Origin: a virus | Taxonomy: Duplodnaviria; Caudoviricetes | Reading direction: 5' to 3' (one strand) | Virus record (IMG/VR): IMGVR_UViG_3300020045_005736 | Coordinates: 1 to 49,861 of that record | DNA length: 49,861 nt | In this document: piece by piece, positions 3,738 to 49,861 of the stretch | Position numbering within the stretch: the first letter of the stretch is position 1 | Layout of the letters: each line of letters opens with the position of its first letter | The notes under the pieces: model-generated | The model's input: only the letters and a program-made list of their open reading frames with translations | Databases searched by the model: none | What the model was told of the DNA's origin: nothing | Position numbers and translations under genes: made by a program

Positions 3738-3754
3738 TTGGCACAGAACTTGCA
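3738..3754 (+). promoter_or_regulatory. sigma54 (-24/-12) promoter upstream of major capsid gene
   Basis: TTGGCACAGAACTTGCA matches YTGGCAC-N5-TTGCW; intergenic; correct orientation. Confidence 0.8.
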
Positions 3755-3893: not shown

Positions 3894-5207
3894 ATGCCTA
3901 CAATAATGCCGGCAGTCGATCAAGGTATCATTTCTGCGTGGAATGAAGTTGAACAATCCACGTATAATTCGTATCCTTTTTGGCTCGCCAAATATACAGT
4001 TCAACGGCGAAAGACATATGCGACCCACTCGCGTCTTTTCGGTAAACAGAAGTGGACTTCAAACATGGGGCCGGTTATGCGTGGTGTACGTAAGGAACCT
4101 TCGCCTCATCTTCGTCAGGAGTTTGCTCCTGCGGAAATGTCTGGTGTTCCTCGCAAAGATATTGTTGATGTGCAGGAAATGACTGTGGAGGCTACGCTCA
4201 AACGTCATCGTTTTGAGTCGCGAGTCTTCCCATTCTATCCGTTCTTTAACGATTTCATGCGGGACCATCTTGTTGCTACGACTACTGATCTTAGTGATAA
4301 GATTATGCGAGCCGAAGACATCTTCTGCCGCACTGGGCATTTTCATATGTCTCCGCACGTGTTCATTGCTAACAGGGCCGGAGGAGAAGTTCTTACGAAT
4401 GTTCCTTTCTGGGATGGTAAGGACATGAGTGGTGTATATGGAGGTACGGTGGGTAAGACCCTCGGTTGGCGTCAATCGGTTATTCCTCAAGTTGGTAATC
4501 CTGGAAACCTCTCTATCGTAAATGTCTTCCAAGCAGATAGCTATTTGCGTGAAGACGTTCGTGCGGTTTGTTGGACGGATGGTTCTCAAGGCGGTGCGCC
4601 GAAAGACGACTCGCCTATGAGCGGTAAGAACGTACTTGTATGTTCTAACGAAGCGTATAATCAATTCCGCTTCGACCCATTCCTTCTTGATAATCGGCGC
4701 ATTGATCTTGATATTGTCCAGCATGGATTTAAGGGCAGTATTGGGGATAATGTTGTTTGTAAGATTGAGGACTTGCCACTTAGGATGGCGGCGGATGGAA
4801 CATTCCCTGCGCCTGAAACTCGTGTAGTTGCGGGGGCAGGAGTCTTTAATCTTAACGAGTCTGTGCTTAATCCCGCTTATCGGGATGCGCCTTATGAATG
4901 GGCGTGGCTCTATGCGGCTGATGCGTATAAGTCTCTAGAGGTTGGTCCTCCTCCTGGTGAGTTTACTGGGGACACGGAACCTAAAGGTTTCGCGAACATG
5001 TTCTGGAACGGGGAAGTTAAAGTGACGAAGCTCTTTAATATTCCTTACATGGACCCTGAAAATGCGAACCAAACGTATTATGAATTTAATACGTATGGCG
5101 AACATCTTAAGGCGATCAGCCAGTCATACTTTGGTATGCTTGGGACACAACGGCGGAATGCGATTCCGATTCTGTTTAAGCGTCTGCGGGGTGTCGCGGG
5201 GTACTAA
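3894..5207 (+). CDS. Major capsid protein
   Basis: 437 aa, follows scaffold, has its own promoter and long leader; inferred mainly from synteny and size. Confidence 0.7.
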   Translation: MPTIMPAVDQGIISAWNEVEQSTYNSYPFWLAKYTVQRRKTYATHSRLFGKQKWTSNMGPVMRGVRKEPSPHLRQEFAPAEMSGVPRKDIVDVQEMTVEATLKRHRFESRVFPFYPFFNDFMRDHLVATTTDLSDKIMRAEDIFCRTGHFHMSPHVFIANRAGGEVLTNVPFWDGKDMSGVYGGTVGKTLGWRQSVIPQVGNPGNLSIVNVFQADSYLREDVRAVCWTDGSQGGAPKDDSPMSGKNVLVCSNEAYNQFRFDPFLLDNRRIDLDIVQHGFKGSIGDNVVCKIEDLPLRMAADGTFPAPETRVVAGAGVFNLNESVLNPAYRDAPYEWAWLYAADAYKSLEVGPPPGEFTGDTEPKGFANMFWNGEVKVTKLFNIPYMDPENANQTYYEFNTYGEHLKAISQSYFGMLGTQRRNAIPILFKRLRGVAGY

Positions 5208-34134: not shown

Positions 34135-34172
34135 AATAATTACATTTACGTTATTGTTATTGTTGTTTTACT

Positions 34173-34928: not shown

Positions 34929-34954
34929 AATGTCGAGAGTTATTATTTGCGCCT

Positions 34955-35137: not shown

Positions 35138-35140
35138 AAA

Positions 35141-35353: not shown

Positions 35354-35359
35354 ATTGTG

Positions 35360-35551: not shown

Positions 35552-35562
35552 AGAATGTAGTA

Positions 35563-35925: not shown

Positions 35926-35953
35926 AGATGTGTGAGGGGTGTCTGTGTCACGA

Positions 35954-36145
35954 TTATCTAGCTAGTTTCGTGCCACTTTTCCGGGGCTTCCTATTCTCAT
36001 ACTCCTTTAATTTTGCTTTTAGTTTTTCCTCCATGTCTTTTATACTTCCTCGTGGAAAGACATAACGACATTCGTCAAATGACAAGTCGCTGTTGATATT
36101 TGTATTCGTGGCGATTCCGTTGGACTTTTTCTTTTGGCGTGGCAT
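35954..36145 (-). CDS. Small basic hypothetical protein
   Basis: 63-aa ORF. Confidence 0.45.
   Translation of the reverse strand: MPRQKKKSNGIATNTNINSDLSFDECRYVFPRGSIKDMEEKLKAKLKEYENRKPRKSGTKLAR
35960..35976 (-). promoter_or_regulatory. sigma54-type promoter upstream of lipoprotein gene
   Basis: GTGGCACGAAACTAGCT (GG-N10-GC), 35 nt upstream of ATG 35925. Confidence 0.6.
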
Positions 36146-36150
36146 AAGAT

Positions 36151-36327
36151 TTAGTTTACATCAAGAGCTTTCATTACACAAGTCATTCCAATAATACCGA
36201 AAATAATACAAGTCATAAAAGTAGGAAATCCTGCCCAACCGTGAAGATGAAAAAGAAAATAAGACGATGCGTAAAGTGAACCAATAATTAGAAGTAAACC
36301 AGTAATAAATAACATCAGTTTTTTCAT
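36151..36327 (-). CDS. 58-aa two-TM membrane protein (not in ORF track)
   Basis: MKKLMLFITGLLLIIGSLYASS...TCIIFGIIGMTCVMKALDVN*. Confidence 0.55.
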   Translation of the reverse strand: MKKLMLFITGLLLIIGSLYASSYFLFHLHGWAGFPTFMTCIIFGIIGMTCVMKALDVN

Positions 36328-36328
36328 A

Positions 36329-37354
36329 TTAGTCTTGAAACATAAGTGGATTGTAATCTTCCACAGTGTAGTTGTTATCTAGTGTCGCGTCCCTAAACTC
36401 TGGCGGTAATTTACACACATCAAAGTATTCACAATCCCCAAATTGTCGATGACACCCAGCGTAATTAAAATCACTTTCTGCCTCCGCGCAATTTTTATCT
36501 AAGTGACCCACAATCCACTCGATACGAGAGCGGAGAAACTTATCAAACTCTACCATTCGACCTTCATCGAAGGGCATGACGGGAGAAGTTACATAGTCAC
36601 ACCCATCAAAGCGTCCCTCCTTCTCCGCCTTTTGTGTGGGCTTCCGAAGGAAAAAGGCATTTATCACGACGGGGGGATAACTACTTAAGTCGTTAAGTTC
36701 CTTAAACACTTTGCTATAAAGCATCGTCTGAATACTTAGCTCGAAGCAGCCTATAAATTCCTCCTTATTCGTCGCACTTGTAGTCTTGTGGTCAATAAGA
36801 CAAATGTCGTGACCACCGTATTTCGCAATCATATCTATTGTTCCCGCAAGAAACAAATTATATTTGTCATTACTCCATACTGGGATTGCGAACTTAAATT
36901 CTAATGTGGGTTTACCTTCTGCACCAATAAGCGGGAGGAAGTCTTCTTCCTGAAGTGTAAAGATTGTATTCTCTTCATTACCAGTTCTCTTGTGAACCGA
37001 CGCATATCCCTTCAACATATACTGTAGATGTTGCATCGTTCTAAATTCTCGCGGATTATCTAGGGGAATAAACTCCGCATACTTGTCATAGTAGTCTGTG
37101 GCAGACTTGATACAAGCAGAGAAAGGTAAACCACTGTAGAAGTTCTGGAGAAACTTGTGTGCTGCGGTTCCGTATGCTTGCTTATAGTTTCCCCCACTAC
37201 TCCGTCGGACAAGTCCTCGTATTGCTCGTCGAAAGTAATATCTAAAACAGTTCATATCCTTTAGGATAGAAGCATTGAGAAACACATTCTTCTTCCCTTG
37301 AGATAAGCGATTAAATTCTTCTACACTATAGATTGCTTTGGGATTGATTGTCAT
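36329..37354 (-). CDS. PD-(D/E)XK exonuclease (RecB/Cas4-like, probable Fe-S cluster)
   Basis: YGTAAH, GTIDMI..LIDHKTT, QTMLYS, C-terminal C..C..C; likely start 37354. Confidence 0.8.
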   Translation of the reverse strand: MTINPKAIYSVEEFNRLSQGKKNVFLNASILKDMNCFRYYFRRAIRGLVRRSSGGNYKQAYGTAAHKFLQNFYSGLPFSACIKSATDYYDKYAEFIPLDNPREFRTMQHLQYMLKGYASVHKRTGNEENTIFTLQEEDFLPLIGAEGKPTLEFKFAIPVWSNDKYNLFLAGTIDMIAKYGGHDICLIDHKTTSATNKEEFIGCFELSIQTMLYSKVFKELNDLSSYPPVVINAFFLRKPTQKAEKEGRFDGCDYVTSPVMPFDEGRMVEFDKFLRSRIEWIVGHLDKNCAEAESDFNYAGCHRQFGDCEYFDVCKLPPEFRDATLDNNYTVEDYNPLMFQD

Positions 37355-37358
37355 AATC

Positions 37359-37736
37359 TTATTGTTGTGTTGAGCCAGCATCCCATTGTTGGGGCTGATC
37401 TCTCTTAAATATCTTAGCATTCCAGGCTTTCCACATAGACATAGCCTTATCTCCTGTAAAGATGACTCCCGCATTAGCAGTCACCTTGAAGAATACTTCG
37501 GGAGTCCACTGTTCAAGGAGACCTAGTCGTTTAGCTCTCTCATACATTGTCTCTGCTGGATAGTCAGGATGAGGATAAGCACTAGCAGTCTTAAATATGA
37601 CAGAGCCTCTTACTGACATGTAAGCTGGCGCGGGCAAAGTATCCCTTGTATCACCATGCTGATTCCTATAATAGAATCGCGCCCATTGGCAAGAATTCAA
37701 ATTAAGAATTATTTTGTTATCACGTTTAGTCTTCAT
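37359..37736 (-). CDS. Hypothetical protein
   Basis: ORF with ATGA overlap. Confidence 0.55.
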   Translation of the reverse strand: MKTKRDNKIILNLNSCQWARFYYRNQHGDTRDTLPAPAYMSVRGSVIFKTASAYPHPDYPAETMYERAKRLGLLEQWTPEVFFKVTANAGVIFTGDKAMSMWKAWNAKIFKRDQPQQWDAGSTQQ

Positions 37737-38173
37737 ATTATATTTAGTAAAGCAAATTCTCCGTGCAATTTAATAGCAGCTTGGTTATATCTAATAGCAG
37801 CTTCTTTAGCTGTATCAAATGTTCCTAAATCTGTACGTTTGCCATTGACAGCTATTCTTACATTCCATTTACCTTTGGATGTAAGTCTAACTCCTTTATA
37901 GCCAGATGGGCCTCTTTTGCTGTCTCTATTTGAATTGTTTTGTGAATATGTGCAGCCTCTTAAGTTAAGTCTTTGATTGTTGTGCCTATCTCTATCTTGA
38001 TGATCATAAAGATCATCATTGAAATCTAAAATATAATAGACAATAGATTTCATCGAGGTTGTATCGTGAACAGGTTTATTATGTCCACAGCCAAAGCTTC
38101 TATGTCTAAGTTTCAGATAGTCTCCATCATCAACATAGATAGGTTTGCCGCAATTGCATTGAAGTATTTTCAT
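37733..38173 (-). CDS. HNH-AP2 homing endonuclease
   Basis: DHQDRDRHNNQRLNLR..N, then SGYKGV..KWNVRI..LGTFDTAKEAAIRYN..LHGEFA. Confidence 0.85.
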   Translation of the reverse strand: MKILQCNCGKPIYVDDGDYLKLRHRSFGCGHNKPVHDTTSMKSIVYYILDFNDDLYDHQDRDRHNNQRLNLRGCTYSQNNSNRDSKRGPSGYKGVRLTSKGKWNVRIAVNGKRTDLGTFDTAKEAAIRYNQAAIKLHGEFALLNII

Positions 38174-38637
38174 TGTTTGCTGTATAGTATCCTGAATGTG
38201 GGTCTGTTAGTGGGAATCCAATTAACATCTACCCCTATGTTACGAGGGTCACTATCCTTGTACTCGTATTCAAGGAGAGGAATCCATGCTAGATATGGTT
38301 CATGATGTAGTGCTTCAATGAGCAATTGTCTAGCACCCAAGGGAACTTCAAACGTGAGAAAGTTAAGCCATTGCTCACCATTGGGACGTTGCTTGAGAGT
38401 GAAGATGGGTATCTTGTTAGTAAAGCCGGGACGGCAAGACATGTATTGGTATCTCTCAGTAGGATACCAGATAGGGCCAGCATCAAATAGAAAGCCAGTA
38501 GGTCTAACTATTGTATTTGACCTTACTGTAACCCAACTATAGTCTGGACCTTTACTTAGTTGAACTACACTATAGATACCACCTACAACAAGGGCTATTG
38601 CTCCGGCGGCGGTTCCTACTTTAGCTTTGGTATCCAT
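38170..38637 (-). CDS. Hypothetical protein with N-terminal TM anchor
   Basis: Hydrophobic N-terminus. Confidence 0.5.
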   Translation of the reverse strand: MDTKAKVGTAAGAIALVVGGIYSVVQLSKGPDYSWVTVRSNTIVRPTGFLFDAGPIWYPTERYQYMSCRPGFTNKIPIFTLKQRPNGEQWLNFLTFEVPLGARQLLIEALHHEPYLAWIPLLEYEYKDSDPRNIGVDVNWIPTNRPTFRILYSKQ

Positions 38638-38843
38638 AATGATTGTCCGCTGAGTGCATGATGCTTGTTGTAGATAGCCCTACATTGGTCACACCAAGGT
38701 TGGCTATCGTCGGGCTTGTAGTTAGGCTCAATAGAGAGTTGCTCACGTAGTGCAACTAGCGACCAATCATCTTCTGGATTACTGTCACGGCCACATAGAC
38801 GCATTGAGTGTCCACCTAAGTTAATGTGTGTTCTTGTTGACAT
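38616..38843 (-). CDS. Hypothetical protein
   Basis: 75 aa, H/C-rich (LCG..CDQC). Confidence 0.45.
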   Translation of the reverse strand: MSTRTHINLGGHSMRLCGRDSNPEDDWSLVALREQLSIEPNYKPDDSQPWCDQCRAIYNKHHALSGQSLWIPKLK

Positions 38844-38998
38844 AATGTTGAATGTTGTCTCTCCCTCACCCCTCCATCTAACAAGGATGATAGTCCATCA
38901 TAGTTAATGATACACATCAAATACAATTGTCCCTGCATCAAACAAAGATAATCGTCATGGATGGTCTAAGGTGAGGAGAGAGACTAAAGTGTTATGGG

Positions 38999-39427
38999 TT
39001 ATTCTAATACTCCACAAGGTTGCCATGTATTGCCGCCGTCGTATGAGATTTCTACATCACTAAAAGCAGTCTTTAAGTCTGACCACTTGACTTGAGCGTC
39101 TAAGATTGTGTAAAAGCCGTCTGGCATAGATGTTATTACTAGTAGAGTAACTTTAGGTTCAAAAATACTTCTCAGCAAACTACCAACTGGAGGATTTTCA
39201 CCACGTATCCAAGCTCTCCACTTCTTAGGTTGTGGTGGATTCAAGTCATCCGGATGGATACGATATTGCATCTTTTGAAAGTCAAAGAAATATCTACAAA
39301 TAGGGGCACAATTATTATGCCAAAGATCATTGTCATCTGTTCTTATCTGAAATCGACCGTATTTGAGTGCCGCCTGCATCACTGCAATCTTACCCTTTAA
39401 TGTTGATGTGTCTGGTTGTTGATTCAT
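38999..39427 (-). CDS. Hypothetical phage protein
   Basis: 142-aa ORF with QYRI and WQPCG motifs. Confidence 0.55.
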   Translation of the reverse strand: MNQQPDTSTLKGKIAVMQAALKYGRFQIRTDDNDLWHNNCAPICRYFFDFQKMQYRIHPDDLNPPQPKKWRAWIRGENPPVGSLLRSIFEPKVTLLVITSMPDGFYTILDAQVKWSDLKTAFSDVEISYDGGNTWQPCGVLE

Positions 39428-39445
39428 AAGTGGTTGTATTATTTG

Positions 39446-39598
39446 TTACTGCGTTAAGACTTCGTGCTCACTACTGATGATGACTTCATCTGCCATCAAC
39501 ACATCAGTAGCTAAAGCATTAACGAATTGTCCAGACTTAATGTCTGCCAGCAACTCTCCATCGGGAGTCTCGATGATTAGTGTGATTTTGATTTTCAT
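39446..39598 (-). CDS. Small hypothetical protein
   Basis: Likely start 39598 (MKIKITL). Confidence 0.45.
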   Translation of the reverse strand: MKIKITLIIETPDGELLADIKSGQFVNALATDVLMADEVIISSEHEVLTQ

Positions 39599-39602
39599 GG
39601 TG

Positions 39603-39767
39603 TTACTTGGATTGACCTTTGCGATTGATGAGTCCAGCCCTAATCTTATCACGTCGAGACATGGGCTTATTGACGATGAGTGTTCCATACTTGTTGGAAT
39701 CATATACTCGTATCTTACGACCTACAGTCAAAGACTTGCGAAGGGCTAATATGTTGGGGGAGGACAT
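39603..39767 (-). CDS. 54-aa basic protein (not in ORF track)
   Basis: MSSPNILALRKS...RKGQSK* fills the gap between neighbours. Confidence 0.4.
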   Translation of the reverse strand: MSSPNILALRKSLTVGRKIRVYDSNKYGTLIVNKPMSRRDKIRAGLINRKGQSK

Positions 39768-39781
39768 AGATATGCTATGTG

Positions 39782-40180
39782 TTATTTGTTGAGTTGATTG
39801 AACTTGGAAATTAGTGCATCTATCTGACAGTCTTGTACATCTTCTTTACTTCCTTCTTCTGTTACTGTTGGACGTAAAGTTCTAATGAGAGCTATTGCTT
39901 CTGTAGCACAGAGCTTCCAGTTGTCACGATCTTTGAAGACTTGCCCCCATTCATCTCTTTCTTTTCTCGCCTCATCCCTCTCCCGCTCAAGTTTGCGGGC
40001 GAAGTCGAGAAGCACAATCTCGTTGGAATCGTTAAGGCAATATTTTTTCAAGTAAGCATCCGTTTCCGGCGTTGGTGTGTTGAATTCAAGTGGTTGTCCA
40101 TCTGGCGTGCTAAGATGACACTTAGGACAAGTCAAAAGGACTCCGTGTAATTCCATTGGTGTAAGACAAAGACAATTCAT
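39782..40180 (-). CDS. Hypothetical phage protein
   Basis: TPETDA..FARKLERERDEA motif. Confidence 0.55.
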   Translation of the reverse strand: MNCLCLTPMELHGVLLTCPKCHLSTPDGQPLEFNTPTPETDAYLKKYCLNDSNEIVLLDFARKLERERDEARKERDEWGQVFKDRDNWKLCATEAIALIRTLRPTVTEEGSKEDVQDCQIDALISKFNQLNK

Positions 40181-40446
40181 TCCGGTATCTCCTTTAGGTT
40201 TTTGGCGGCGGAGCGTATGTCTGTGCCAATTCCACCGTTAGAGTATTCGCTTCTATCGCACATCCCCGCCGCCCATCTTGCTCCTGCTTTGAAGGCGTCG
40301 AGTTGGATTTCCTTTATCCACCATTTAGTAGCAGAATCAGACATGGTGAATTGTTGATTAGCCATGTTGATTCCTTGAATGTAGGCAATCTCTTTAGACC
40401 ACTCCTCCGCGCTTTTCATCTTGGGTTGTTGTTCGTTGTTTGTCAT
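40177..40446 (-). CDS. Hypothetical protein
   Basis: 89-aa ORF, ATGA overlap. Confidence 0.5.
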   Translation of the reverse strand: MTNNEQQPKMKSAEEWSKEIAYIQGINMANQQFTMSDSATKWWIKEIQLDAFKAGARWAAGMCDRSEYSNGGIGTDIRSAAKNLKEIPE

Positions 40447-40583
40447 AGTTTAATTATCGCCCCGTTAGTTACTTCCGGGGCATTGCTGGCTGTTACTTGG
40501 AGTTAGTTTCTGTTTGCACTCTGGGCAATAAGCGAAAACTATTCCGTGTTCACAATACATTTAGCATCACCTTCCTTTCTTTG

Positions 40584-40811
40584 TTAATCATTGATTGAGA
40601 AATAATCCAACTCTAAGTTGAGAGCTGACGCCAGTTTGCACAAGTTGTGATAGTTGGGACAATTCGTCCCGTGACACCAACAATAAATTGTGTGATATGG
40701 AATCTCAGTTTTACGCGACAAATCAGCTATTGTGTAGCCTAACTCATCTAATGCTGTGCATATGAGGTCAGCAAACTCATTGCGATTGATTATGATTTGT
40801 TTGTGTTTCAT
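40584..40811 (-). CDS. XRE/Cro-CI HTH transcriptional regulator
   Basis: GYTIADLSRKTEIPYHTIYCWCHG..P..LCKLASAL. Confidence 0.8.
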   Translation of the reverse strand: MKHKQIIINRNEFADLICTALDELGYTIADLSRKTEIPYHTIYCWCHGTNCPNYHNLCKLASALNLELDYFSIND

Positions 40812-40852
40812 ATAAGACTAGGACTCGCACACAAAAGGTATCCTAGAATAAA

Positions 40853-41085
40853 TGGATTGAGCGCGGCAGGATTTGAACCTGCATGAGACAGTAAGATGAT
40901 GGGGTATAACCGCCAACCCACCTACCATGCGAGAACTGTTACAGCATCGCACATTAAAGTGCTGACCGGCTTGGAGTCTTGCTTCTGGCCTATCATTCCA
41001 CTCCTTATGGGAGCAGCCAGATTTGTTCTTCGTCTCTCGTCGCATTCGTATCGCTAGCGTCTTTACATTCCGCCACGCGCTCAAT
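40853..41085 (-). ncRNA. tRNA-like RNA with ~174-nt structured insertion replacing anticodon/variable arms
   Basis: Acceptor GAGCGCG (41082-41076)/CGCGCTC (40865-40859); D-arm GCGGAATGTAAAGACGC; T-arm GCAGG-TTCAAAT-CCTGC; CCA at 40855-40853. Confidence 0.7.
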
Positions 41086-41097
41086 TCAAATTCTTCT

Positions 41098-41328
41098 TTA
41101 CTTTATCTCAATTTCTTTCCTCATGTAAAGAACGCGCACAACGTCAAGAAGAATATCCGCCGCACTTCCGCCTTTTCTTCCAAGCGCACTGGATACTTGC
41201 GACATACGAACTTCACCATTGAAATACGCAAGGAGAAGTTCTTTATGCTCTTCAGTGTAATTCTTTACTCCTTTCGCTGTCTTTGTTCCTTTAGCTCTGT
41301 CGAGTAGTGTTTGCTTTATACTTGCCAT
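41098..41328 (-). CDS. Small basic protein, possibly HTH-like
   Basis: EVRMSQVSSALGRKG helix pattern. Confidence 0.5.
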   Translation of the reverse strand: MASIKQTLLDRAKGTKTAKGVKNYTEEHKELLLAYFNGEVRMSQVSSALGRKGGSAADILLDVVRVLYMRKEIEIK

Positions 41329-41362
41329 ATGTTTTGTTGTTGTTGTTGCTTACCACCGTAAA

Positions 41363-41671
41363 TTAAAAATCCTTCGTCATCTTCGTCATCTCATCATCAC
41401 TCGGAAGTGTAAGTTCACTTAGAAGTTTATTAAAATCCGCGTCAAGGAGACTCTTTGCTTTTTTCTCTTTACTCTTACTCGTCTTTGTCTTTGTCTTCTT
41501 CCCATCGTTCTTATCCACCTCTTCCACTTCTATCTCTAGTGATGTAGCACAACCAATCGGTTCGAGAATAGTAATGTCTTTAAGATATTCGCTAAGCTCA
41601 ATCTCCGACATGCCAAGTATCTTCTCATATCCCTCGTTGCTTAGTCCTAGAAGCTCGCTTAGTGTGGGCAT
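41363..41671 (-). CDS. Hypothetical protein
   Basis: 102-aa ORF. Confidence 0.55.
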   Translation of the reverse strand: MPTLSELLGLSNEGYEKILGMSEIELSEYLKDITILEPIGCATSLEIEVEEVDKNDGKKTKTKTSKSKEKKAKSLLDADFNKLLSELTLPSDDEMTKMTKDF

Positions 41672-41683
41672 ATTAGTCTTCTC

Positions 41684-42292
41684 TTAATCTGGCTTCACCG
41701 CCCTAATAAGTTCCCGTTCAACCTCAAATTCTATCCCCACATCCCCAAGTGTCTTGCTTACCCAATTAATAAGTTCATCACTTAGCTCCCGTCCTCCTAA
41801 ATTCTTTTTTCCTTCAAGAATAAGAACCTGTTTAGAGGACTCAAGAAAAGTCGTAATTAAGTCCTTAATAAATTGGTCACTAGTTCCCAAACTTCCACCT
41901 ATTAAAGTAGAAGTTGCACCCAACACATCCCCCAAATTGTTATATTTCTTAAACTCCACAGTTACGTCGTCAAGTTTCGCACATATTTTTGTCTGTGCTT
42001 GCAGTTGAGCATAATCCTCTTTAGTAAATTTCGATGTAGGCGTCGCCGTGGCGTGCATTGCGAGCCATCGCCTTGCTTCCCCCATACGGTTTTGAAGTGT
42101 CCTACTATTTACTCCGAGCTTCGCCGCATTAAGAATAATAGGTTCACGTGTTTCAAGAAGTCTGTCAAAAATTGGTCTGAATTTCTCTGCGTTCTCCTTG
42201 TTAAAGGTTGACCTAACATACGGCGTGCTCTTCATCTCTGTGAAGGCTGGCGTATCTTTACTTTTATATTCTTGCTTGTTGTCGTCACTCAT
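41684..42292 (-). CDS. Hypothetical protein
   Basis: 202-aa ORF. Confidence 0.6.
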   Translation of the reverse strand: MSDDNKQEYKSKDTPAFTEMKSTPYVRSTFNKENAEKFRPIFDRLLETREPIILNAAKLGVNSRTLQNRMGEARRWLAMHATATPTSKFTKEDYAQLQAQTKICAKLDDVTVEFKKYNNLGDVLGATSTLIGGSLGTSDQFIKDLITTFLESSKQVLILEGKKNLGGRELSDELINWVSKTLGDVGIEFEVERELIRAVKPD

Positions 42293-42538
42293 AATGGAGT
42301 AGAGGTCTGCTATTTTTTCTTAAAGTAAATGACAGACTATTACTGGTCTGTCAGCAGCCTCTAGTTTTATCGTCTTAGAGTTGACTATTCATCCTCGCTT
42401 CAAGATGGTCGTCAAGAAGTTTAATGACATTGTTAATTGTTGACAGTTGACATTGTTGGTCCATTATCTACTACATTCGATAATTTCAACCCAACACCGT
42501 AATATAATAATATTAATATATCTAATACCGTAGCCTAA

Positions 42539-43141
42539 TCAAGCCACAAACTCCGCAAGAGCCTCGTCATCCTTAGCCCGTTGCGCTTCAATAAGTGCCT
42601 TAAGTTCTTCACTCTTCTCTTTCCACTTCTTCGCATGTTCTGCCGCAAGACCCAAGTTCCCTTCGCCCTTTGCCTTAAGTGCGGCTTTCTTCAAGTCATT
42701 ACAAACCTTCGTAAGACCACTCACACTTGAAGCCCCATCACGTTCACCCGGAACATAATCAAGCGCATCTTGCTCAGACACAAGAATAGAATTAGTTGAA
42801 CGAAGTTTAGCAACATCTTCATCGCTAATACGTTCAGTAACACCGTCCTCAGTCTTAACAAGTTTACTATTCGCAACAGAACGCATACGTGTTGCAAGTG
42901 CTGCATTAACAATCCCAAGAATGATGCTCTTTCCATCCTTACCATTTTGAGACTTCTTGGAAAGATGTTCAGCAGCTCCATCAAGAGAAAGATATTCGGG
43001 ATACCAGAAATAGAATCCCTCGTTATCACTTCCCTTACGGAATGTTTCCTTGTGGAGCTTAACTTCTCCAAAAGTCTTAGTTTCTGGAGCCACTTCATTC
43101 GTCGGTTGTTCTTCGGTCGCTGTGGTATTTTCGTCACTCAT
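42539..43141 (-). CDS. Hypothetical protein, first gene after a sigma54 promoter
   Basis: 200-aa ORF with CAA-rich leader. Confidence 0.65.
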   Translation of the reverse strand: MSDENTTATEEQPTNEVAPETKTFGEVKLHKETFRKGSDNEGFYFWYPEYLSLDGAAEHLSKKSQNGKDGKSIILGIVNAALATRMRSVANSKLVKTEDGVTERISDEDVAKLRSTNSILVSEQDALDYVPGERDGASSVSGLTKVCNDLKKAALKAKGEGNLGLAAEHAKKWKEKSEELKALIEAQRAKDDEALAEFVA

Positions 43142-43221
43142 AACTATTTAGTTGTTGGTTACTTTGTTGTTTTATGTCGCACGGCCATAGCTATATGTAG
43201 CTCGGTCGCTACCCTACGTAT

Positions 43222-43238
43222 AGCTAGTGCTGTGCCAA
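43222..43238 (-). promoter_or_regulatory. sigma54-type promoter downstream of the activator gene
   Basis: TTGGCACAGCACTAGCT in the 43142-43343 intergenic gap. Confidence 0.7.
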
Positions 43239-43286
43239 TCCGAAAAGGGGAATTACTCTTTGCTCCGGAGTTTTCAAGTGACAGTG

Positions 43287-43300
43287 AGTAGAAATCTACT
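43287..43300. promoter_or_regulatory. Palindrome upstream of sigma54 promoter (candidate UAS/operator)
   Basis: AGTAGA-AA-TCTACT; shares GAGTAGAAATCT with 49218-49229. Confidence 0.5.
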
Positions 43301-43343
43301 AAAGGGCTTTTCTTGTCGTCGTGGCTCGGAGGAAGAATTAAAA

Positions 43344-44144
43344 TCATACGTGAAGTTTGAACGTCTTAAATGCAATAAGTTCTTCACAATAATTAAGAAG
43401 TTCCCTGACGTTTCCCGGCCAATCGTATTGAGGTAAGCACTTATGCGAAGGGAGTTCACCAAACTCACCCTTAGTGAAGTGGTTGTAAATTAAATCTATT
43501 TCTCCTTGTCCTCGTTCGTGTAGTGTCTTGAGTGCGAAGCGTGTTCCCGCAAGACGGTAGTATAAGTCACTTCTGAAGAGTTTCTCGTATTTATTAAGCT
43601 CAGTGAAATTTGTCGCAGAAACTATACGACAATTTATCTTTATGTTCTTCTTCCCTCCGATTCGTCGTATTTCTCGTTCTTGCAACACACGTAGGAGTTT
43701 ACATTGTAGTGTCCTCGGTAGTTCTGCAATCTCATCAAGAAATATCGTCCCATCATTTGCCTCTTCAAAGTATCCTATACGTGTGCTATCACACCCTGTA
43801 TAGCTTCCTCGTTCAGCCCCGAAGAACTCTGCTTCTAGGAGTGTATCAGGTATTCCACCACAATTTATTGCAACAAATTTCCCCGTTCTATTTCCGTGAA
43901 GTATTCGTGCTATTAGTTCTTTTCCCGTTCCTGTTTGTCCTGTGATAAGAACAGGGATATTGTGCGACCATATCCATGAAGCACGCTTAATCGTATTAAG
44001 TGTGTCTTTGTCTTGAGTAACTACATTCTTTATACTTTGTTGAAGAGAAGAGATAGGTGTAGAAGTGGGAACTATTGGTGTGGTTGAGGACAAACATTCT
44101 TCAAGTAGATTGAGATCGAGATCGAGATCGAGGTCGTTGCTCAT
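43344..44144 (-). CDS. sigma54-dependent transcriptional activator (bEBP), AAA+ domain only
   Basis: PVLITGQTGTGKELIAR, FVAINCG, EAEFFG..GSYTG (GAFTGA loop), GTIFLDEI, LLRVLQE, FRSDLYYRL, WPGNVREL; no sensor domain and no C-terminal HTH. Confidence 0.93.
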   Translation of the reverse strand: MSNDLDLDLDLNLLEECLSSTTPIVPTSTPISSLQQSIKNVVTQDKDTLNTIKRASWIWSHNIPVLITGQTGTGKELIARILHGNRTGKFVAINCGGIPDTLLEAEFFGAERGSYTGCDSTRIGYFEEANDGTIFLDEIAELPRTLQCKLLRVLQEREIRRIGGKKNIKINCRIVSATNFTELNKYEKLFRSDLYYRLAGTRFALKTLHERGQGEIDLIYNHFTKGEFGELPSHKCLPQYDWPGNVRELLNYCEELIAFKTFKLHV

Positions 44145-45019
44145 TCGCTGGCTTCCTTTCCTTTGACTTTGTAAAATGCTTCGAGACTTTTTTCTATCGC
44201 GAGATTATTTACACTGGGATTATTACTTATCTGTGAGGAGAGATAAATACTATTTGTTGGATTTTCTCCTTGCGTAAAGATATGGTTAACATGCTTACTA
44301 TTAGTAAAGTTTGGGTCACACGAACAACCATAATTCCCCCACATCGGCTCGCATCTTTCTTGATGGGCAAAAACTATGCGACGCTCTATCGCAGGATTTG
44401 CAAGACAAAAGACAAGAGTATCTAAGTCCATGTTCTCGTCAAATTTCTTTATACAACACGAGAGTTGATAATAAGACGCTGGCCCAAAACATCCTATCGT
44501 GCTTTCAATTAAATACACCGAACATCTTGTTCCCCGTTCTTCTAGTGCATTTATAAGTGCAGCGATATAAGCTCCCCTATCCGCTATCGCTTCGCCACTT
44601 ATATGTCCATTAAAGGAGATATTTACTAGAAATGTCTGGTGTGTGTTCCCTAGTAGTTGGTCACTTCCATGTTCAAATGTCCCAAAACATTCGGGTTCTT
44701 TACGCAGATATGCATCTATGTCGAAGAAATCCCCAGTTACGTCGAGTTTCTTCTCGAGGTTAGTTCCTTGTAGGGGATATTTGTTGTCCCAAAAGTCTTT
44801 GTATTGGGCTTGTTTATCTTTAATCAACTTTATCCCTTCGCTCCAGCCAAACCTTGCTAGATGAATTGCATCTGCGAAAGACTTTGTCCCGCAATCATTC
44901 CCAGTAGTATGCGACATTGATGCACATCTATTTTCTGGATTAGCATCATGTCTATCGTGAGTGGTAATCCAATCAATAAACGAGGAGAATGATGGAAACG
45001 AGTAGAAGTAATTTTTCAT
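44141..45019 (-). CDS. vWA/CobT-like partner of MoxR/CobS-type ATPase
   Basis: Adjacent to AAA gene; 'DVTG.FFDIDAYL..EPEC' and 'RGA..AALINALE..G' patterns. Confidence 0.55.
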   Translation of the reverse strand: MKNYFYSFPSFSSFIDWITTHDRHDANPENRCASMSHTTGNDCGTKSFADAIHLARFGWSEGIKLIKDKQAQYKDFWDNKYPLQGTNLEKKLDVTGDFFDIDAYLRKEPECFGTFEHGSDQLLGNTHQTFLVNISFNGHISGEAIADRGAYIAALINALEERGTRCSVYLIESTIGCFGPASYYQLSCCIKKFDENMDLDTLVFCLANPAIERRIVFAHQERCEPMWGNYGCSCDPNFTNSKHVNHIFTQGENPTNSIYLSSQISNNPSVNNLAIEKSLEAFYKVKGKEASE

Positions 45020-45030
45020 AAATTTACTCT

Positions 45031-46245
45031 TTATTCTTTATCTTTGCTGTCTTGTGGATTTATGATTGTCGCTCCACTGATGAGAAATGAATCTAGCGGC
45101 TTCATCTGGTCATTTTTCATCGCTTCCATCATTTTATTTATCTCATCCACACTTGGCATAAATCCAACATTATCAGATGCGCGTTGAGCTGCTTGTCGTC
45201 TTGCTTCTTGGCGTTTATGCTCTTGCTCTCTTTCACTCCTTGCTTTCACTTCATCTTTTTCTCGTTGTTGTTTTTCTTTTTCGAGCTTTTTCTCAAGCTC
45301 TTCTAGCTCTTTACGCGACTTTTCCTTCTTTTCTTCTTCTTGTCGCTTCTTCTCTCGTTCTTGTTCTTCTTTCTCACGTTTTTCTTGATCGGCATTTTTC
45401 TTAAACTTAGGAAGATTCTCAACTTTAGTTTTTTTGTTCTTCGCAGCTTCAAGAATCTTTTTCTTTCGCTCGTGAGAAAGTCCTTTGAGAATTACACTAT
45501 TAAGTATCTCCCCCAATGTTCTATCCCAAGCAACTTTAATCGCTGCTTGCTTCATAGTGCGGGGAGAGATAATATGTTGGATTTGTAGCTCCTCAATCAC
45601 TTGTTGTATCTTCTCTACGTCCACAAAGAGTTGATTGAGTTCATTTGTCTTGTTCCAAAACTTCTCATTTTCCGTGTCGAATGACCACTTACGCTCAATC
45701 TCGTCAACACTTATCTTGTAAGTTAATTCCTTGTCGTAAGGCCAATACTGAAATACAAACCTATTCAGTAGTGCCACGTCTTGTCGATTACGTCCGACAT
45801 AATTTAAGCTGGGGCCATTGCCTAGCGTGTTGGCTGTTGCGATTAAAACAAATCGCGGGTGACGTTCTCTCATTCCACAAGGAAAGAACACGTTGCCGTC
45901 GCTAAGTCCATTAAGAATCAAATTTGTGTTACTGTTACCATTATCTACTTCGTCAAAGAGCATCACTCCTCCTTCTGTAAAGGGTTTATATGCTACACCC
46001 GGAGCATATTCCCCATTAGGTAACATGTAACCCATAATAGAAGATTCGCTCATAGAACTACCCACTACTTTTTTGTAGAATGGAAGTCCCAATTTATGCG
46101 ATGCAAGTTCACAGCTAAATGTCTTCCCACTTCCTGTGGGTCCATGTTGATAAACATCTAGGCCCATTTCTATATTAGACATCAGCTCATTAAACTTCTC
46201 GTGTTCGTGAGACTTTACTTTGTCGAGATTTTCGATTGGTTGCAT
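45031..46245 (-). CDS. MoxR/CobS-like AAA+ ATPase with charged coiled-coil tail
   Basis: HGPTGSGKT, GGVMLFDEVD, LIATANT.G.G..YVGR..D.ALLNRF. Confidence 0.85.
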   Translation of the reverse strand: MQPIENLDKVKSHEHEKFNELMSNIEMGLDVYQHGPTGSGKTFSCELASHKLGLPFYKKVVGSSMSESSIMGYMLPNGEYAPGVAYKPFTEGGVMLFDEVDNGNSNTNLILNGLSDGNVFFPCGMRERHPRFVLIATANTLGNGPSLNYVGRNRQDVALLNRFVFQYWPYDKELTYKISVDEIERKWSFDTENEKFWNKTNELNQLFVDVEKIQQVIEELQIQHIISPRTMKQAAIKVAWDRTLGEILNSVILKGLSHERKKKILEAAKNKKTKVENLPKFKKNADQEKREKEEQEREKKRQEEEKKEKSRKELEELEKKLEKEKQQREKDEVKARSEREQEHKRQEARRQAAQRASDNVGFMPSVDEINKMMEAMKNDQMKPLDSFLISGATIINPQDSKDKE

Positions 46246-46265
46246 TTGCGTATCCTTTTCTTTCC

Positions 46266-46637
46266 TTAGTTAAGATTAAGATTAATATTTTCTCCCAGAA
46301 TAGATTTTGCTAGGGTTTCTCCCTTGTCGTTTCCTTTTTCTCCTCCATACTTCGCAATCAGTTTTTCAATCTTGTCCAGAAGTAATTTGCCTCTAAGCTC
46401 TGTGATTTCTTTCGTCGCAGCATAACTTTGGACTGTGAAAACGAAGAGAAGTAGATTTTTCTCCTCCTCTGTGAAATTTGCGGGGCTAAGAACTTCAGAG
46501 ATAAAGTAAACGTAAGTAACTTCAACATCTTGTTCTGATTTACTTTTATCTACAAGCTCAATGAACTTGGTTTTTTGTGGGCTATCGCTTAGAAAGCGAT
46601 TGATTAGTTTGATTCCTTCTTGGGTGATGTTTTTCAT
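46266..46637 (-). CDS. Hypothetical protein
   Basis: 123-aa ORF. Confidence 0.55.
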   Translation of the reverse strand: MKNITQEGIKLINRFLSDSPQKTKFIELVDKSKSEQDVEVTYVYFISEVLSPANFTEEEKNLLLFVFTVQSYAATKEITELRGKLLLDKIEKLIAKYGGEKGNDKGETLAKSILGENINLNLN

Positions 46638-46674
46638 AGGAGTATGTTGTTTTGTTGTTACTGTAAATTTAGTT

Positions 46675-48219
46675 CTAGCTCTCTCCGTCCAACATTTCAG
46701 GTGTGACTATGTCAAGTTCTTCTCCTTCTTCGCTGTCTTTCTCTTCACGCGCTTGCATTTGCTCAAGATCTCTATCTACACCCTGCGTGAAGATGTTTTG
46801 GATGAAGTTGTCTGCTCTATCGTAGAGTGTTCTTACACAAGCATACTTGTCTTGAAGTCTCGTTGCTACTTCTTCTTCAATAGTGTCACGATACCACGTA
46901 AGATACATCCGGGCTGGGGAGATATTATCAATCCGTTGCGTCCGGCCAAGAAATTGGAGAAATTCATATACACTCCAGCAGGGTGGCATGATTGAAGTTC
47001 TAGGATAAGAATTAACATCATTGTGTTGAAGATTAAGCCCTGTCCCACCACTCTTAAGCGTTGTGAGAAAGTAGCGTGTCCGTCCTATCGCAAAGTCATC
47101 AATACTCTTTTGCTTATTCTTGTCATTCATCGTTCCATAAAGACGACTTATCTCACTCTCCCTTACTCCCATTTTAAGGAGCCACTTCTCCACACTCTCT
47201 AATGTTGCGATGAAGTTGCTAGGGATAATAACAGATTGACCATGAGTTTCTTTGACGTATTTTGCACAGATAGCTAATTCATCTGCGCGAAGAAGTTCAC
47301 TACACATTTGAAACTCCCTCATTGCGTTCCATTTCTCCACAACTGGATTAGCTATGTCTGGTTTTCCCGCATTACGACGACGTTCGATGAATCTATCGTA
47401 TGCTTTGTTGTAAATTATCTTCTTAGGTGAACTAAGGTCAAACAGCTTGTTTTCTAGTATGGGCTTGAAAGGATAGCGGACATTCTTTACTTGGATATAT
47501 TTGTTCTTCCCTTCAAGAAGTTCCTTTATCCTCTCGCATGCACGGGGAGAATTATCGGTCGGACCCGATGGGGAAACTTGCCAAGCAAAAGATTCAAATT
47601 CACTCGAAGTGTGGATAAGTCCTGCGGAGTAGCAAATATGTTTTGCCTCAGATGCTTTCTGATACGGTGTTGCACTCATGTTCACAACACGTCCAAGTCT
47701 TGCCTTAAGAAACTCTTCTATCACCTTACTTCGTTGTGAGTTTGGATTCTTAAGATATTGAACTTCATCACAAATGATTAGGTCCGGGGCGAAATCAGTG
47801 TTCCATTCTGGGATAATATGTTCGGTTCCAAGGGTGATTACTGTTTTCCAATCAATATACATTTCACCCAAGCTACTCCTTAGTGAGTCATAACTTGTGA
47901 CAAGACAGTTTACTACTCCTTGGCGACGAAGAACTCGCTCGGTTTGAACTATCGCATTACGAGGAACGAGGATAAATACCGGATAAGTTTGGAAGGGTCG
48001 TTCTGGATTACACTCTTTGTATAGACCATCATCTTGAGCACGTTTTAGTGCTTCAGCGAGAATAATAGTCTTTCCACTTCCCGTTCCACCTTGAATAAGG
48101 GGAGCACCGTCATCATAACTTTGCTTCAGATATTTCTCTAGAGAAATTATTGGTTCTAGTTGAAACTTCTTAGGCGTATATGCTAAGATTGGTCGTTGGG
48201 GAATTGTTGAAGTACTCAT
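46675..48219 (-). CDS. Superfamily 2 helicase
   Basis: GGTGSGKT, DEVQ, SATP, GGTGLNL, QFLGRTQR. Confidence 0.85.
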   Translation of the reverse strand: MSTSTIPQRPILAYTPKKFQLEPIISLEKYLKQSYDDGAPLIQGGTGSGKTIILAEALKRAQDDGLYKECNPERPFQTYPVFILVPRNAIVQTERVLRRQGVVNCLVTSYDSLRSSLGEMYIDWKTVITLGTEHIIPEWNTDFAPDLIICDEVQYLKNPNSQRSKVIEEFLKARLGRVVNMSATPYQKASEAKHICYSAGLIHTSSEFESFAWQVSPSGPTDNSPRACERIKELLEGKNKYIQVKNVRYPFKPILENKLFDLSSPKKIIYNKAYDRFIERRRNAGKPDIANPVVEKWNAMREFQMCSELLRADELAICAKYVKETHGQSVIIPSNFIATLESVEKWLLKMGVRESEISRLYGTMNDKNKQKSIDDFAIGRTRYFLTTLKSGGTGLNLQHNDVNSYPRTSIMPPCWSVYEFLQFLGRTQRIDNISPARMYLTWYRDTIEEEVATRLQDKYACVRTLYDRADNFIQNIFTQGVDRDLEQMQAREEKDSEEGEELDIVTPEMLDGES

Positions 48220-48234
48220 AAAGAGTAAGGAAAA

Positions 48235-48351
48235 TTATGTTGCACAAAAGAGAAGCCCAATAAGTCCTAATCCTAAAAGAGCCAAGGCAGCTCCGATTAA
48301 GAATGTAAAGATGAAGTCTTGTGGAGTGGGTCGCCAGTCGTTGTTTTGCAT
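48235..48351 (-). CDS. 38-aa single-TM peptide (not in ORF track)
   Basis: MQNNDWRPTPQDFIFTFLIGAALALLGLGLIGLLFCAT*. Confidence 0.5.
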   Translation of the reverse strand: MQNNDWRPTPQDFIFTFLIGAALALLGLGLIGLLFCAT

Positions 48352-48383
48352 AGATTTACTTTCTTTCTTTCTTTCTTTCTTTG

Positions 48384-48908
48384 TTATTCTCCCTTATCTA
48401 GGAGTAAATCAAATCCAAACGCTTTACGATACTTGAGGTCAATCTCATTTGTTTTACGAGTGATTTTCTCCTCAAGTGTATCAGGGTCAAAGTCACGTAT
48501 TTCTTCAATTCGTGGCGTAATAGCATTTACAACAATCTTTATCGCCTCGCTCTTTTGTTTCCCCTTTGCAATTAACCACTCAATCGCCTTGTTTCTCTTC
48601 TCCTCAAACTCCGTGTGTTTTTGCGTTTCGAGGAAATTCACAAAGGTTTTTTCCGCCGCCTCTTTGTTACGACGTTCAATCACTCCGGCGGAGTTTGCTT
48701 TATATTCTTCAAGTTTCCACAATTGCCAAAGTCCACTAAAGCTATTGTCTAAGTGATTGATTGGTTCGAGCTTTACTATCTCACTCCAACCTTCTTGCCC
48801 CATTATCTCTTTCGCTCGATTGTCATCTATCGTCGCGAACATCACGTTACGACCTTTAAGTGACGAGAAGTATTCTGCGAGAGATATAGTTATTTTAAGT
48901 CTTTCCAT
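48384..48908 (-). CDS. Hypothetical protein, first gene of the leftward operon
   Basis: 174-aa ORF. Confidence 0.6.
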   Translation of the reverse strand: MERLKITISLAEYFSSLKGRNVMFATIDDNRAKEIMGQEGWSEIVKLEPINHLDNSFSGLWQLWKLEEYKANSAGVIERRNKEAAEKTFVNFLETQKHTEFEEKRNKAIEWLIAKGKQKSEAIKIVVNAITPRIEEIRDFDPDTLEEKITRKTNEIDLKYRKAFGFDLLLDKGE

Positions 48909-49065
48909 AGATTTGTTATCTTTATTGAATTGAATTATTTGTGACTACGGTATCGTCCAGCGGCTTCGCCGCCGAGAGGGGAGTTATTCTTTGTTCGCTC
49001 GCCTCGCCTATAGGTGTAGGCGCGCCGCTCCCTAGCGTATCGGGACAGGGTAGGTTCATATCGGG

Positions 49066-49093
49066 AGTCTATACGACCGTTGCGAGCCGTCAA
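49066..49093 (-). promoter_or_regulatory. Candidate sigma70 promoter, leftward
   Basis: TTGACG-N16-TAGACT. Confidence 0.45.
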
Positions 49094-49174
49094 GCGGGAA
49101 TCGTAGCCTAATCGACGACATAAGCGGGGCTGATGGTCTAATGATGAAAATGAGTTGAACTGATAGGGGAAGGG

Positions 49175-49191
49175 AGCAAGTCGCGTGCCAA
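49175..49191 (-). promoter_or_regulatory. sigma54 (-24/-12) promoter heading the leftward operon
   Basis: TTGGCACGCGACTTGCT, essentially consensus, intergenic. Confidence 0.85.
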
Positions 49192-49217
49192 TCGGGACGG
49201 GGGAAGAAACATTTAGG

Positions 49218-49257
49218 GAGTAGAAATCTTCTGCTTTTGTTTGACAGATTTCTACTC
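49218..49257. promoter_or_regulatory. 12-bp perfect inverted repeat (operator/UAS candidate)
   Basis: GAGTAGAAATCT-N16-AGATTTCTACTC, overlapping the rightward sigma70 promoter. Confidence 0.65.
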
Positions 49258-49269
49258 AACATCTATCTT
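49241..49269 (+). promoter_or_regulatory. sigma70 promoter, rightward
   Basis: TTGACA-N17-TATCTT upstream of ATG 49337. Confidence 0.75.
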
Positions 49270-49336
49270 CCTTTCATCGGCCAGCATTAACAAAGGTGCG
49301 ATTCAACATCGACACCGCTGGAAACGAGACAGACAT

Positions 49337-49861
49337 ATGAACACAACAACGACCGAAACGACCGCCGCCAAAAGTGACAACCGGGGCAAGGTCACAAAGA
49401 CAGTAACTCCCTTCGATTCCGCAATTGAGCGCAACGGGGTCACGGTGAAGCTCACCGCAATCCCCTATCTACGCGGTGGCACGAAGGAAGATAGCAACGG
49501 GAAGGAGATATTCGTTGCCGGTTACTTGGGTATTGTCCCTGCCCTTGCGAACGAATCGACTTGTTTCGCTACTCTCGCAAAGCTCGTTGCAAGGGACAAA
49601 GACAAAGAGAAGGGAGAAGAATGGATTGAACTTCTTTTTCGTCAATACATGATTGAGAGTGTGAACCATGAATATTTCCGTCCCGCTTGGATTGAAGCTT
49701 CTAAGGGATTCGCCCCCGATGCGACACTTAGTGAACAAGACAAAAAGCTAATCACCGCGCGATTCAACACTGAATTGCAGAATACGATTGAAAGTGTCAG
49801 AGGCGAGCGGGAGCAAAACTCCGGTCAAATCCAAAAGAAACTTCTCAAAGTTCAAGAAATA
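49337..49861 (+). CDS. Hypothetical early protein, 3'-truncated (not in ORF track)
   Basis: MNTTTTETTAAKSDNRGK... open to the window end. Confidence 0.7.
   Translation, partial: MNTTTTETTAAKSDNRGKVTKTVTPFDSAIERNGVTVKLTAIPYLRGGTKEDSNGKEIFVAGYLGIVPALANESTCFATLAKLVARDKDKEKGEEWIELLFRQYMIESVNHEYFRPAWIEASKGFAPDATLSEQDKKLITARFNTELQNTIESVRGEREQNSGQIQKKLLKVQEI

Follow-up and report, generated by a model that had tools for sequence, protein, structure and literature searches.

A stand-alone phage sigma54 activator and a conserved set of predicted sigma54 promoters in an uncultured phage family

The sigma54 holoenzyme requires an ATPase activator, and the phage genome described here probably supplies one of its own. 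The window, by which we mean the whole stretch of DNA analysed, is one entire virus record from IMG/VR, 49,861 bases long, classed as linear, rated 100% complete by CheckV and 42% in GC content. It encodes a stand-alone sigma54 activator of 266 residues, made of a bacterial enhancer-binding protein (bEBP) AAA+ domain (43344..44144, minus strand), and carries four sites of the -24/-12 type. Sequence comparison across a family of related phages supports well that the two belong to a real and conserved transcription programme. It is quite probable that the bare activator opens sigma54 RNA polymerase at the conserved phage sites and thereby closes a self-amplifying loop. Somewhat less firmly, we favor the broader reading that a family of lytic phages runs nearly its whole programme, activator operon included, on sigma54 by means of its own enhancer-free ATPase, to which one clade would add sigma54 itself. 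The core inference of the first-pass annotation, that phage activator and phage sigma54 promoters form a transcription programme, is thus supported by comparisons comprising a spacer control, positional conservation, co-occurrence, absence from outgroup phages and a sigma54-encoding sister clade.

The activator and the sigma54 sites of the window

The 266-residue ORF matches the Pfam family Sigma54_activat (PF00158) with an E-value of 1.9e-54 and 184 bits against a cut-off of 20.2, and it has no receiver, sensor or HTH_8 match in Pfam; only 19 residues extend beyond the sensor II arginine. Reading of the sequence places Walker A at G69-QTGTGKE76, the switch asparagine at N94, Walker B at FLDE 135-138 and further motifs at SATN 176-179, RSDLYYRL 191-198 and GNVRE 244-248; these elements, with sensor I, the arginine finger and sensor II among them, are all intact. 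The initial description of an NtrC-family AAA+ protein with intact core motifs and neither receiver, sensor nor HTH is therefore correct, as is the statement that the loop retains its threonine. This activator loop 1 (residues 113-118) reads GSYTGC, with no deletion and three changes from GAFTGA. In the available text of Francke et al. (PMC3162934), validated activators are listed both for the A-to-S and for the F-to-Y change, and the last change, from A to C, is entered as putative only. The combination of three changes in one loop counts against the explanation we prefer. The best PDB matches of the protein are the central domains of FleQ, FlrA, NtrC1 and PspF. In being without regulatory and DNA-binding domains, it agrees with the FleT type; it falls outside the canonical three-domain bEBPs (groups 1-3, with sensor or receiver and HTH) and, having no receiver domain, outside group 5.

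The four sites lie at the coordinates and on the strands first proposed for them. The site at 3739..3753 (plus strand, score 19.6) is an exact consensus match, lies 140 nt upstream of the capsid gene and heads the 20-kb run of virion genes, with a predicted start at 3765. Another exact match at 49176..49190 (minus strand, score 18.6, predicted start 49164) heads the operon that runs from the helicase to the activator, i.e., the operon of the activator itself. The highest-scoring site, at 43223..43237 (minus strand, score 21.9, predicted start 43211), lies 106 nt downstream of the activator gene and 82 nt upstream of a gene for a 200-residue protein. A weaker site at 35961..35975 (minus strand, score 16.1, predicted start 35949) is found ahead of the block of Sak4 and DNA polymerase genes, 36 nt upstream of a lipoprotein-like ORF of 120 residues (35563-35925, minus strand), whose lipobox was read from the sequence. 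The claim that every site stands at the head of a gene block needs qualification here, as this site overlaps the final codons of an ORF of 63 codons and lies within a co-oriented run. The lipoprotein-like ORF directly behind this weakest site has no homologue among 23 relatives. Two of the four sites have TAGC instead of TTGC at -12.

The proposed comparison of a sigma54 matrix with shuffled sequence was carried out with a matrix whose 36 training sites all lie upstream of capsid genes in relatives and outside the window. The four flagged sites take its top four ranks, with scores of 21.9, 19.6, 18.6 and 16.1, and the next score is 13.1; 100 shuffles gave 0.63 sites scoring at least 14 (at most 3), a single one of which scored as high as 20.8. 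If up to one mismatch is tolerated, TGGCAC-N5-TTGC has 7 matches in the window versus 2.18 expected, a number reached by one of 100 shuffles; the three matches beyond the four sites fall in coding DNA. The TWGC variant gives 4 matches at the correct spacer and 0-1 at others.

The genes around the activator differ in how widely they are shared. The superfamily 2 helicase (46675..48219, minus strand; Pfam Helicase_C and ResIII) is found upstream of the activator in nearly all family genomes, as judged by gene order. Just upstream of the activator, a CobS-like AAA+ gene (45031-46245) and a DUF7192 gene (44141-45019), both on the minus strand and assigned by Pfam/PHROG, form a pair (44141-46245) that is present in 5 of 24 genomes; this distribution marks it as accessory and outside the core module. 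The 200-residue protein encoded first behind the 43223 site (42539..43141, minus strand) has no Pfam or PHROG family match, and its family occurs in 9 of the 24 genomes. A core protein of 202 residues (41684..42292, minus strand) belongs to a family present in 22/24 genomes, and in 22/24 its gene comes right after the activator. This protein has no match in Pfam or PDB, and its Atlas feature matches to HTH clusters, of 0.89-0.90 only, give a weak HTH-like signal; it is possibly an HTH-like partner or target of the activator.

The gene behind the 3739 site encodes a protein of 437 residues (3894..5207, plus strand) without a match in Pfam or PHROG. Its ESM Atlas model matches clusters of N4-gp56-family major capsid proteins (TM 0.60-0.63 by query and 0.67-0.84 by target), which bears out the label of major capsid protein given at first pass. 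The leader that separates the sigma54 site from the start codon contains two tandem predicted H-type pseudoknots (3776-3800 and 3802-3824, plus strand), which would span roughly nucleotides +11 to +60 of the transcript predicted for the capsid gene. A descriptor search found tandem units in 21 of 46 leaders, versus 0.72 in shuffles and 1 on the antisense strand. For the alignment, 42 of 58 parsed units were used, 16 doubtful, irregular or duplicate parses having been dropped; the helix that makes the pseudoknot is paired in 94% of cells, and the covariation score was reached by 0 of 500 shuffles, a result inflated by the selection of units for pairing. The pseudoknots have no Rfam match. They could serve in mRNA protection, in antitermination of the 20-kb late run or in binding of a regulator.

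The record as a whole consists of two convergent arms, with virion genes on the plus strand (1-24463) and replication genes on the minus strand; the latter comprise, by Pfam and PHROG, DNA polymerase A, a primase-helicase, a Sak4-like protein, a PD-(D/E)XK nuclease and a helicase. Despite the CheckV value of 100%, the record lacks the large terminase and its preceding gene, a gap that coincides with the junction of the record ends; a PHROG match to the large terminase is present in 17 of 24 compared genomes. Judged by gene content, the record is not truly complete in spite of its rating, and statements on absence for this genome are incomplete because the terminase region is missing. The ORF at 49337-49861 runs off the record end and, on comparison with the putative small terminase, showed no resemblance to it. 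Two further genes of the record drew our attention. The last virion gene (18788-24463, plus strand) encodes 1891 residues with an ART-PolyVal ADP-ribosyltransferase domain at 936-1056; the product is probably an ejected protein, which could modify a host target early in infection. The gene at 33236-33547 (minus strand) has an Acb2/Tad1 hairpin domain match above the cut-off (PF24729), and its product is a probable sponge of defence signalling nucleotides.

Conservation of the activator and the sites across the family

In a protein search for activator relatives, in which the 8000 best candidates were scored, the best 28 matches after the protein itself are proteins of 249-281 residues without HTH_8, six of them on contigs of 52-57 kb. 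Queries with the activator or the capsid protein alone drew no matches from IMG/VR, and alignments were needed; with the activator alignment, the best 80 of 241 matches were kept, among which 41 are short and HTH-less and the others mostly full-length bacterial types. Matches in INPHARED are mostly bacterial contigs or unannotated fragments, and the best 80 matches of a metagenome scan include one short protein, cut by the contig end, and none accompanied by family core genes. In a FastTree tree of 199 domains, all 78 phage-type activators and one more short protein share one side of a branch with SH-like 93 (not starred). The loops of these 78 read GAFTG in 30, GSFTG in 21, GAYTG in 14, GSYTG in 6 and otherwise in 7; GAFTGA itself is found in 30, and the threonine is retained in 74. 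Catalytic motifs (Walker A GxxGxGKE, Walker B, sensors and arginine finger) are intact in 72-78 of the 78. Family activators have 44-132 residues before Walker A and, in the 20 proteins measured, 13-38 after sensor II. In view of this N-terminal stretch, and of FleT, the closest natural analogue, which works with a partner, the description of the activator as unregulated given at first pass is no more than a possibility.

The pattern search covered 31 records, one of them for an unclear locus and the other 30 drawn from the 41 loci with a short activator. TGGCAY-N5-TWGC occurs in 27 of the 31, including 15/15 near-complete ones, with 71 matches versus 3 for the reversed pattern, the W having been chosen after seeing the window. 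Twenty-three of the 31 were compared in detail, giving 24 genomes with the window. They constitute one syntenic family with shared genes 21-62% identical, the common genes being those for polymerase, nuclease, helicase, capsid and other virion proteins. The activator is a core gene (24/24, the relatives having been chosen by it), with the nuclease block downstream of it and, in records that extend far enough, the helicase upstream. The DNA polymerase gene, whole in the window, is split into two ORFs in many relatives, often with genes between the halves (G004-G008, G010, G011, G015, G018, G020, G021, G023, G024, G027 and G030).

Enrichment of the sites and a positional bias, both anticipated at first pass, are present. 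In the 23 relatives, TGGCAY-N5-TTGC has 56 matches versus 1-9 at eleven other spacers and 5.97 expected. When up to one mismatch is allowed, 17/18 genomes have a sense site in the 350 nt ahead of the capsid gene (antisense 0/18) and 10/12 have one ahead of the putative small terminase, compared with 76/853 for other genes. Scored with the matrix, 18 of 22 genomes have a site at the head of the helicase-activator operon and 22 of 24 have one behind the activator at a distance of up to 3 kb; a site between the nuclease and polymerase genes, like that at 35961, is present in 5 of 19. ORFs of at least 100 residues cover 84% of the DNA, and 103 of 127 sites lie outside them.

Such a pattern is difficult to reconcile with sites that arise by chance or bind some other phage protein, next to an ATPase whose role is unrelated to sigma54. 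The first -12 base does vary across the family, two window sites carry TAGC there, and the available part of PMC3162934 describes some bEBP homologues as sigma70-dependent. However, the -24/-12 spacing is exact, strand and position are conserved, the loop is free of the deletions that mark sigma54-independent homologues, and one clade encodes sigma54 itself (see below). We regard this reading as highly improbable.

Selection by the capsid protein gives a second view of the family. TGGCAY-N7-GC is found 103-165 nt upstream of the capsid gene in 41/41 loci (26 with TGC and 15 with AGC), of which 10 overlap the activator-selected set and about 14 belong to one close clade, so that the independent number is lower. 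Among the 31 new records of this set, 23 contain PF00158, including 18 of 18 near-complete ones, with one match each. The suggested check on co-occurrence of bEBP genes with sites ahead of capsid genes in related phages thus came out positive (18/18 near-complete records, 41/41 loci). Of the 23 capsid-selected loci with the activator, 8 have a site in the 700 nt that follow it and 15 have none there, which counts against the explanation we favor. The family spans at least 337 capsid-protein clusters; its capsid relatives include no INPHARED match, and it has no cultured member. No family member without the activator was found, and joint loss of activator and sites is consequently testable only on distant phages.

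Distant phages were approached through the polymerase, for which INPHARED gave as best matches PaP2-like phages, Tiera, Kuura, LS06-2018-MD01 and ctMlz233. The podoviruses of Fredfastierviridae (PaP2), together with Tiera, Kuura and LS06-2018-MD01, have a homologous primase, family A polymerase and PD-(D/E)XK nuclease and a similar two-arm layout, but no detectable homology to the window family in capsid, portal or terminase. By its replication module, the window family is placed near these Fredfastierviridae-like podoviruses. Five outgroup phages (L207-L211) share primase, polymerase and nuclease with the family and have no activator. They contain no sites scoring at least 17, versus 1-8 in 24/24 family genomes, the matrix for this comparison being partly trained on the family's capsid sites. 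In none of the five does a site precede the capsid or small terminase gene; three weaker ones in Tiera lie within genes. An unrelated gut phage, MT121960.1, encodes an HTH-less activator of 304 residues (L142:22349-23263) with a GAFTGA loop and an altered Walker A, unannotated in GenBank and located between primase-like and helicase-like genes. No sigma54 site scoring at least 14 is present in that record; activator and sites are hence not always paired outside the family.

A full-length sigma54 is encoded by 9 of 58 family records (2 of 30 and 7 of 28 further ones: G044-G046, G048, G050, G052, G056, G057 and G062), all nine belonging to a close clade with TAGC capsid sites. These proteins (e.g., L293:703-1992, plus strand; L292:1480-2775, minus strand) have 429-431 residues and the RpoN box ARRTIAKYR, and both of the two scanned match PF00309, PF04963 and PF04552 above the cut-off, so that the activator-interacting, core-binding and DNA-binding domains are all represented; at least 120 protein clusters are at least 72% identical to them. 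The gene order is site, rpoN, helicase, activator in all three mapped records of the clade. The placement of sigma54 within the activator operon indicates, at the level of gene arrangement, a genetic tie of activator and sites to sigma54. A sigma54 gene was searched for in the window and none was found, which fits the earlier statement that the phage has no sigma factor of its own; for the family the statement does not stand, given this clade. A sigma70-type factor was found in 0 of 30 family records, as was a T7-type polymerase, although in the latter search the positive control was silent and the result shows little.

The same observations bear on whether host activators drive the phage promoters, with the phage protein serving to fire the host sigma54 regulon or, as an inactive subunit, to block it. 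An HTH-less activator should be unable to distinguish phage from host promoters, and the gut phage MT121960 has an activator without a strong site. According to the available text of PMC7482065, expression of the CtcC ATPase turns on a whole regulon, and in the available part of a preprint on phage YuA (bioRxiv 10.1101/2023.10.13.562163) a sigma54-like promoter is reported and an activator is not. Set against this, the activator gene belongs to the core and keeps its place within the replication arm, the activator-less outgroup phages are without sites, and in one clade sigma54 and activator share one operon behind such a site. Moreover, host sigma54 activators generally need enhancers, and none is conserved here. 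On balance, we consider control by host activators improbable and retain the phage protein as the likely activator of the phage sites.

The sigma54 clade also offers hints at the host. Among the 80 GTDB matches listed for the region I motif of the phage sigma54, a motif chosen partly from recall, 69 are titled Verrucomicrobiota, 64 with an RpoN match, and the best 15 of those listed are only 31-39% identical. A host among the Verrucomicrobiota might tentatively be proposed on this ground. At 40857-41083 (minus strand), the window contains a tRNA-like shell with acceptor, D and T arms, in which about 160 nt replace the anticodon arm; it has no Rfam match and is negative in a default tRNA scan. 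A shell with near-identical ends and a shorter insert is found in a 2.3-kb contig (G529:C132; L439:704-829) of one among 401 genomes from the order of a Limisphaerales genome, which we treat as a host lead only. Two perfect matches of 30-31 nt in G529 were considered as CRISPR spacers and rejected, being halves of this shell; the CRISPR search compared positions 30000-49861 of the window with the 401 genomes and positions 1-40000 with G529 only. GTDB contained no capsid relative and therefore no prophage was seen; none was found in 301 genomes from the class of a Limisphaerales genome either, in a search run without positive control.

Proposed mechanism, priming and possible partners

We propose that the activator likely assembles into an ATP-hydrolysing ring that opens the sigma54 RNA polymerase poised at the phage sites, probably from solution and with no need of an enhancer. 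Action without an enhancer is suggested because the sites share no upstream motif and the IHF consensus is found at 3 of 95 sites; a search for an enhancer-like motif common to the whole family gave none. Sigma54 would be supplied by the host in the lineage of the window and by the phage in one clade. Initially, transcription reading through from a sigma70 promoter further upstream, or an activator of the host, would yield a little of the phage activator, which would then amplify its own operon by positive feedback and turn on the recombination, replication, packaging and capsid genes. The circuit is read as a positive loop because the activator operon usually starts at a sigma54 site (18/22). 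The original proposal that the activator switches on middle and late genes is an oversimplification, as its own operon is usually sigma54-headed. As a side effect, host sigma54 promoters would be switched on.

In the window, a sigma70-like promoter with 10 of 12 matching positions (49241..49269, plus strand) lies divergent from the 49176 site, ahead of the ORF at 49337-49861. Sigma70-like promoters are no commoner in the window than in shuffles (40 versus 41.9), and across the family genomes there is no enrichment (29 versus 19-38 at wrong spacers), which, as regards the priming of the loop, speaks against our preferred explanation. Upstream of the activator, a slight excess is seen (6 versus 1-5 at wrong spacers), and near-consensus sigma70 promoters occur ahead of the activator operon in G013, G023 and G026.

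It also has to be considered that the activator works on phage promoters only together with a partner. This could be an activator of the host, or else a DNA-binding protein of the phage, for instance the 202-residue one, that tethers it, perhaps at a palindrome near two of the sites. The palindrome, AGTAGA-WW-TCTACT, is located at 43286..43300, about 50 nt upstream of the 43223 site, and its half GATTTCTACTC recurs at about 49218-49228 and at 49247-49257, upstream of the 49176 site. The pattern, chosen after it had been seen, has 4 matches versus 1.41 expected; one half also falls inside the divergent sigma70-like promoter, and the palindrome is absent upstream of the 3739 and 35961 sites. It is a possible operator specific to this phage. 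The halves ahead of two window sites, the constant position of the 202-residue gene behind the activator together with its HTH-like Atlas matches, and the N-terminal extension, which could form a docking surface, would all suit a tethered activator, and the requirement of FleT for FleQ is a precedent for a partner. On the other hand, no upstream motif is shared family-wide, none stands before the capsid site, the 202-residue gene lies behind an activator-type site and would thus be unable to prime the loop, and the catalytic motifs are intact in nearly all phage-type proteins. Dependence on a partner is in our estimation unlikely, if the most serious of the alternatives, and an activator acting by itself remains the explanation we prefer.

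Relation to known systems

Several phages redirect host RNA polymerase to middle or late promoters, by SPO1 gp28 and gp33-34, T4 gp55 and MotA, Mu Mor and C, or P2 Ogr. To our knowledge, all these cascades act via holoenzymes of the sigma70 family, and none makes use of ATP-driven opening of a sigma54 closed complex. The parts proposed here are textbook bEBP and sigma54 components, and their use by a virus is without precedent in the literature searched. In this search, which covered few subscription papers, no phage-encoded sigma54 activator programme was found, in line with the earlier remark that this was not known to be a described phage strategy.

If the proposal is correct, it adds a new route beside phage polymerases, sigma70-type factors and antiterminators and, with the clade that also carries sigma54, a portable two-gene viral transcription system. 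Host range would be limited to bacteria with a compatible sigma54, loss of rpoN would confer resistance except against the clade that brings its own sigma54, and the host sigma54 regulon would fire during infection. Natural activators free of sensor and enhancer, along with the cognate phage sigma54, would be candidates for open-complex studies and orthogonal expression systems.

Two phages come near to parts of this system. Pseudomonas phage YuA is reported to depend on sigma70 and sigma54, and the available part of the report describes one mapped sigma54-like promoter only (bioRxiv 10.1101/2023.10.13.562163), in contrast to the set of sites in the window; of the 63 matches that the activator has in INPHARED, 60 were listed, and no YuA record is among these 60. 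The AAA+ protein Htm (Gp204), from E. coli phage AV110, structurally resembles bEBPs and is proposed to touch sigma54 RNA polymerase (bioRxiv 10.64898/2026.10.06.757011). Unlike the activator described here, it has no GAFTGA loop and an altered Walker B, and the accessible text of that preprint describes no phage set of sigma54 promoters.

Among cellular proteins, FlgR of Helicobacter and CtcC of Chlamydia had been named as HTH-less analogues. Both indeed have no HTH, but in the text available of PMC7175178 these group 5 bEBPs keep a receiver and need a kinase, whereas the phage protein is viral and has no receiver; the ATPase domain of CtcC alone hydrolyses ATP and activates sigma54 promoters (PMC7482065, as far as available). 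By analogy, FleT of Rhodobacter (Cereibacter) sphaeroides is the closer natural counterpart. It is given in the same part of PMC7175178 as the only known bEBP without regulatory and DNA-binding domains, and according to the available part of PMC7277832 it forms a heteromer with FleQ and is expressed from a sigma54-dependent operon within a cascade. The need of this only natural precedent for FleQ is a point against an activator that works alone, and in the phage records, with one PF00158 match each, no second activator was seen. As these sources describe it, FleT is cellular, flagellar and works with FleQ, unlike the phage protein; it resembles that protein in the absence of both domains and in having an operon that depends on sigma54, as is predicted for the phage.
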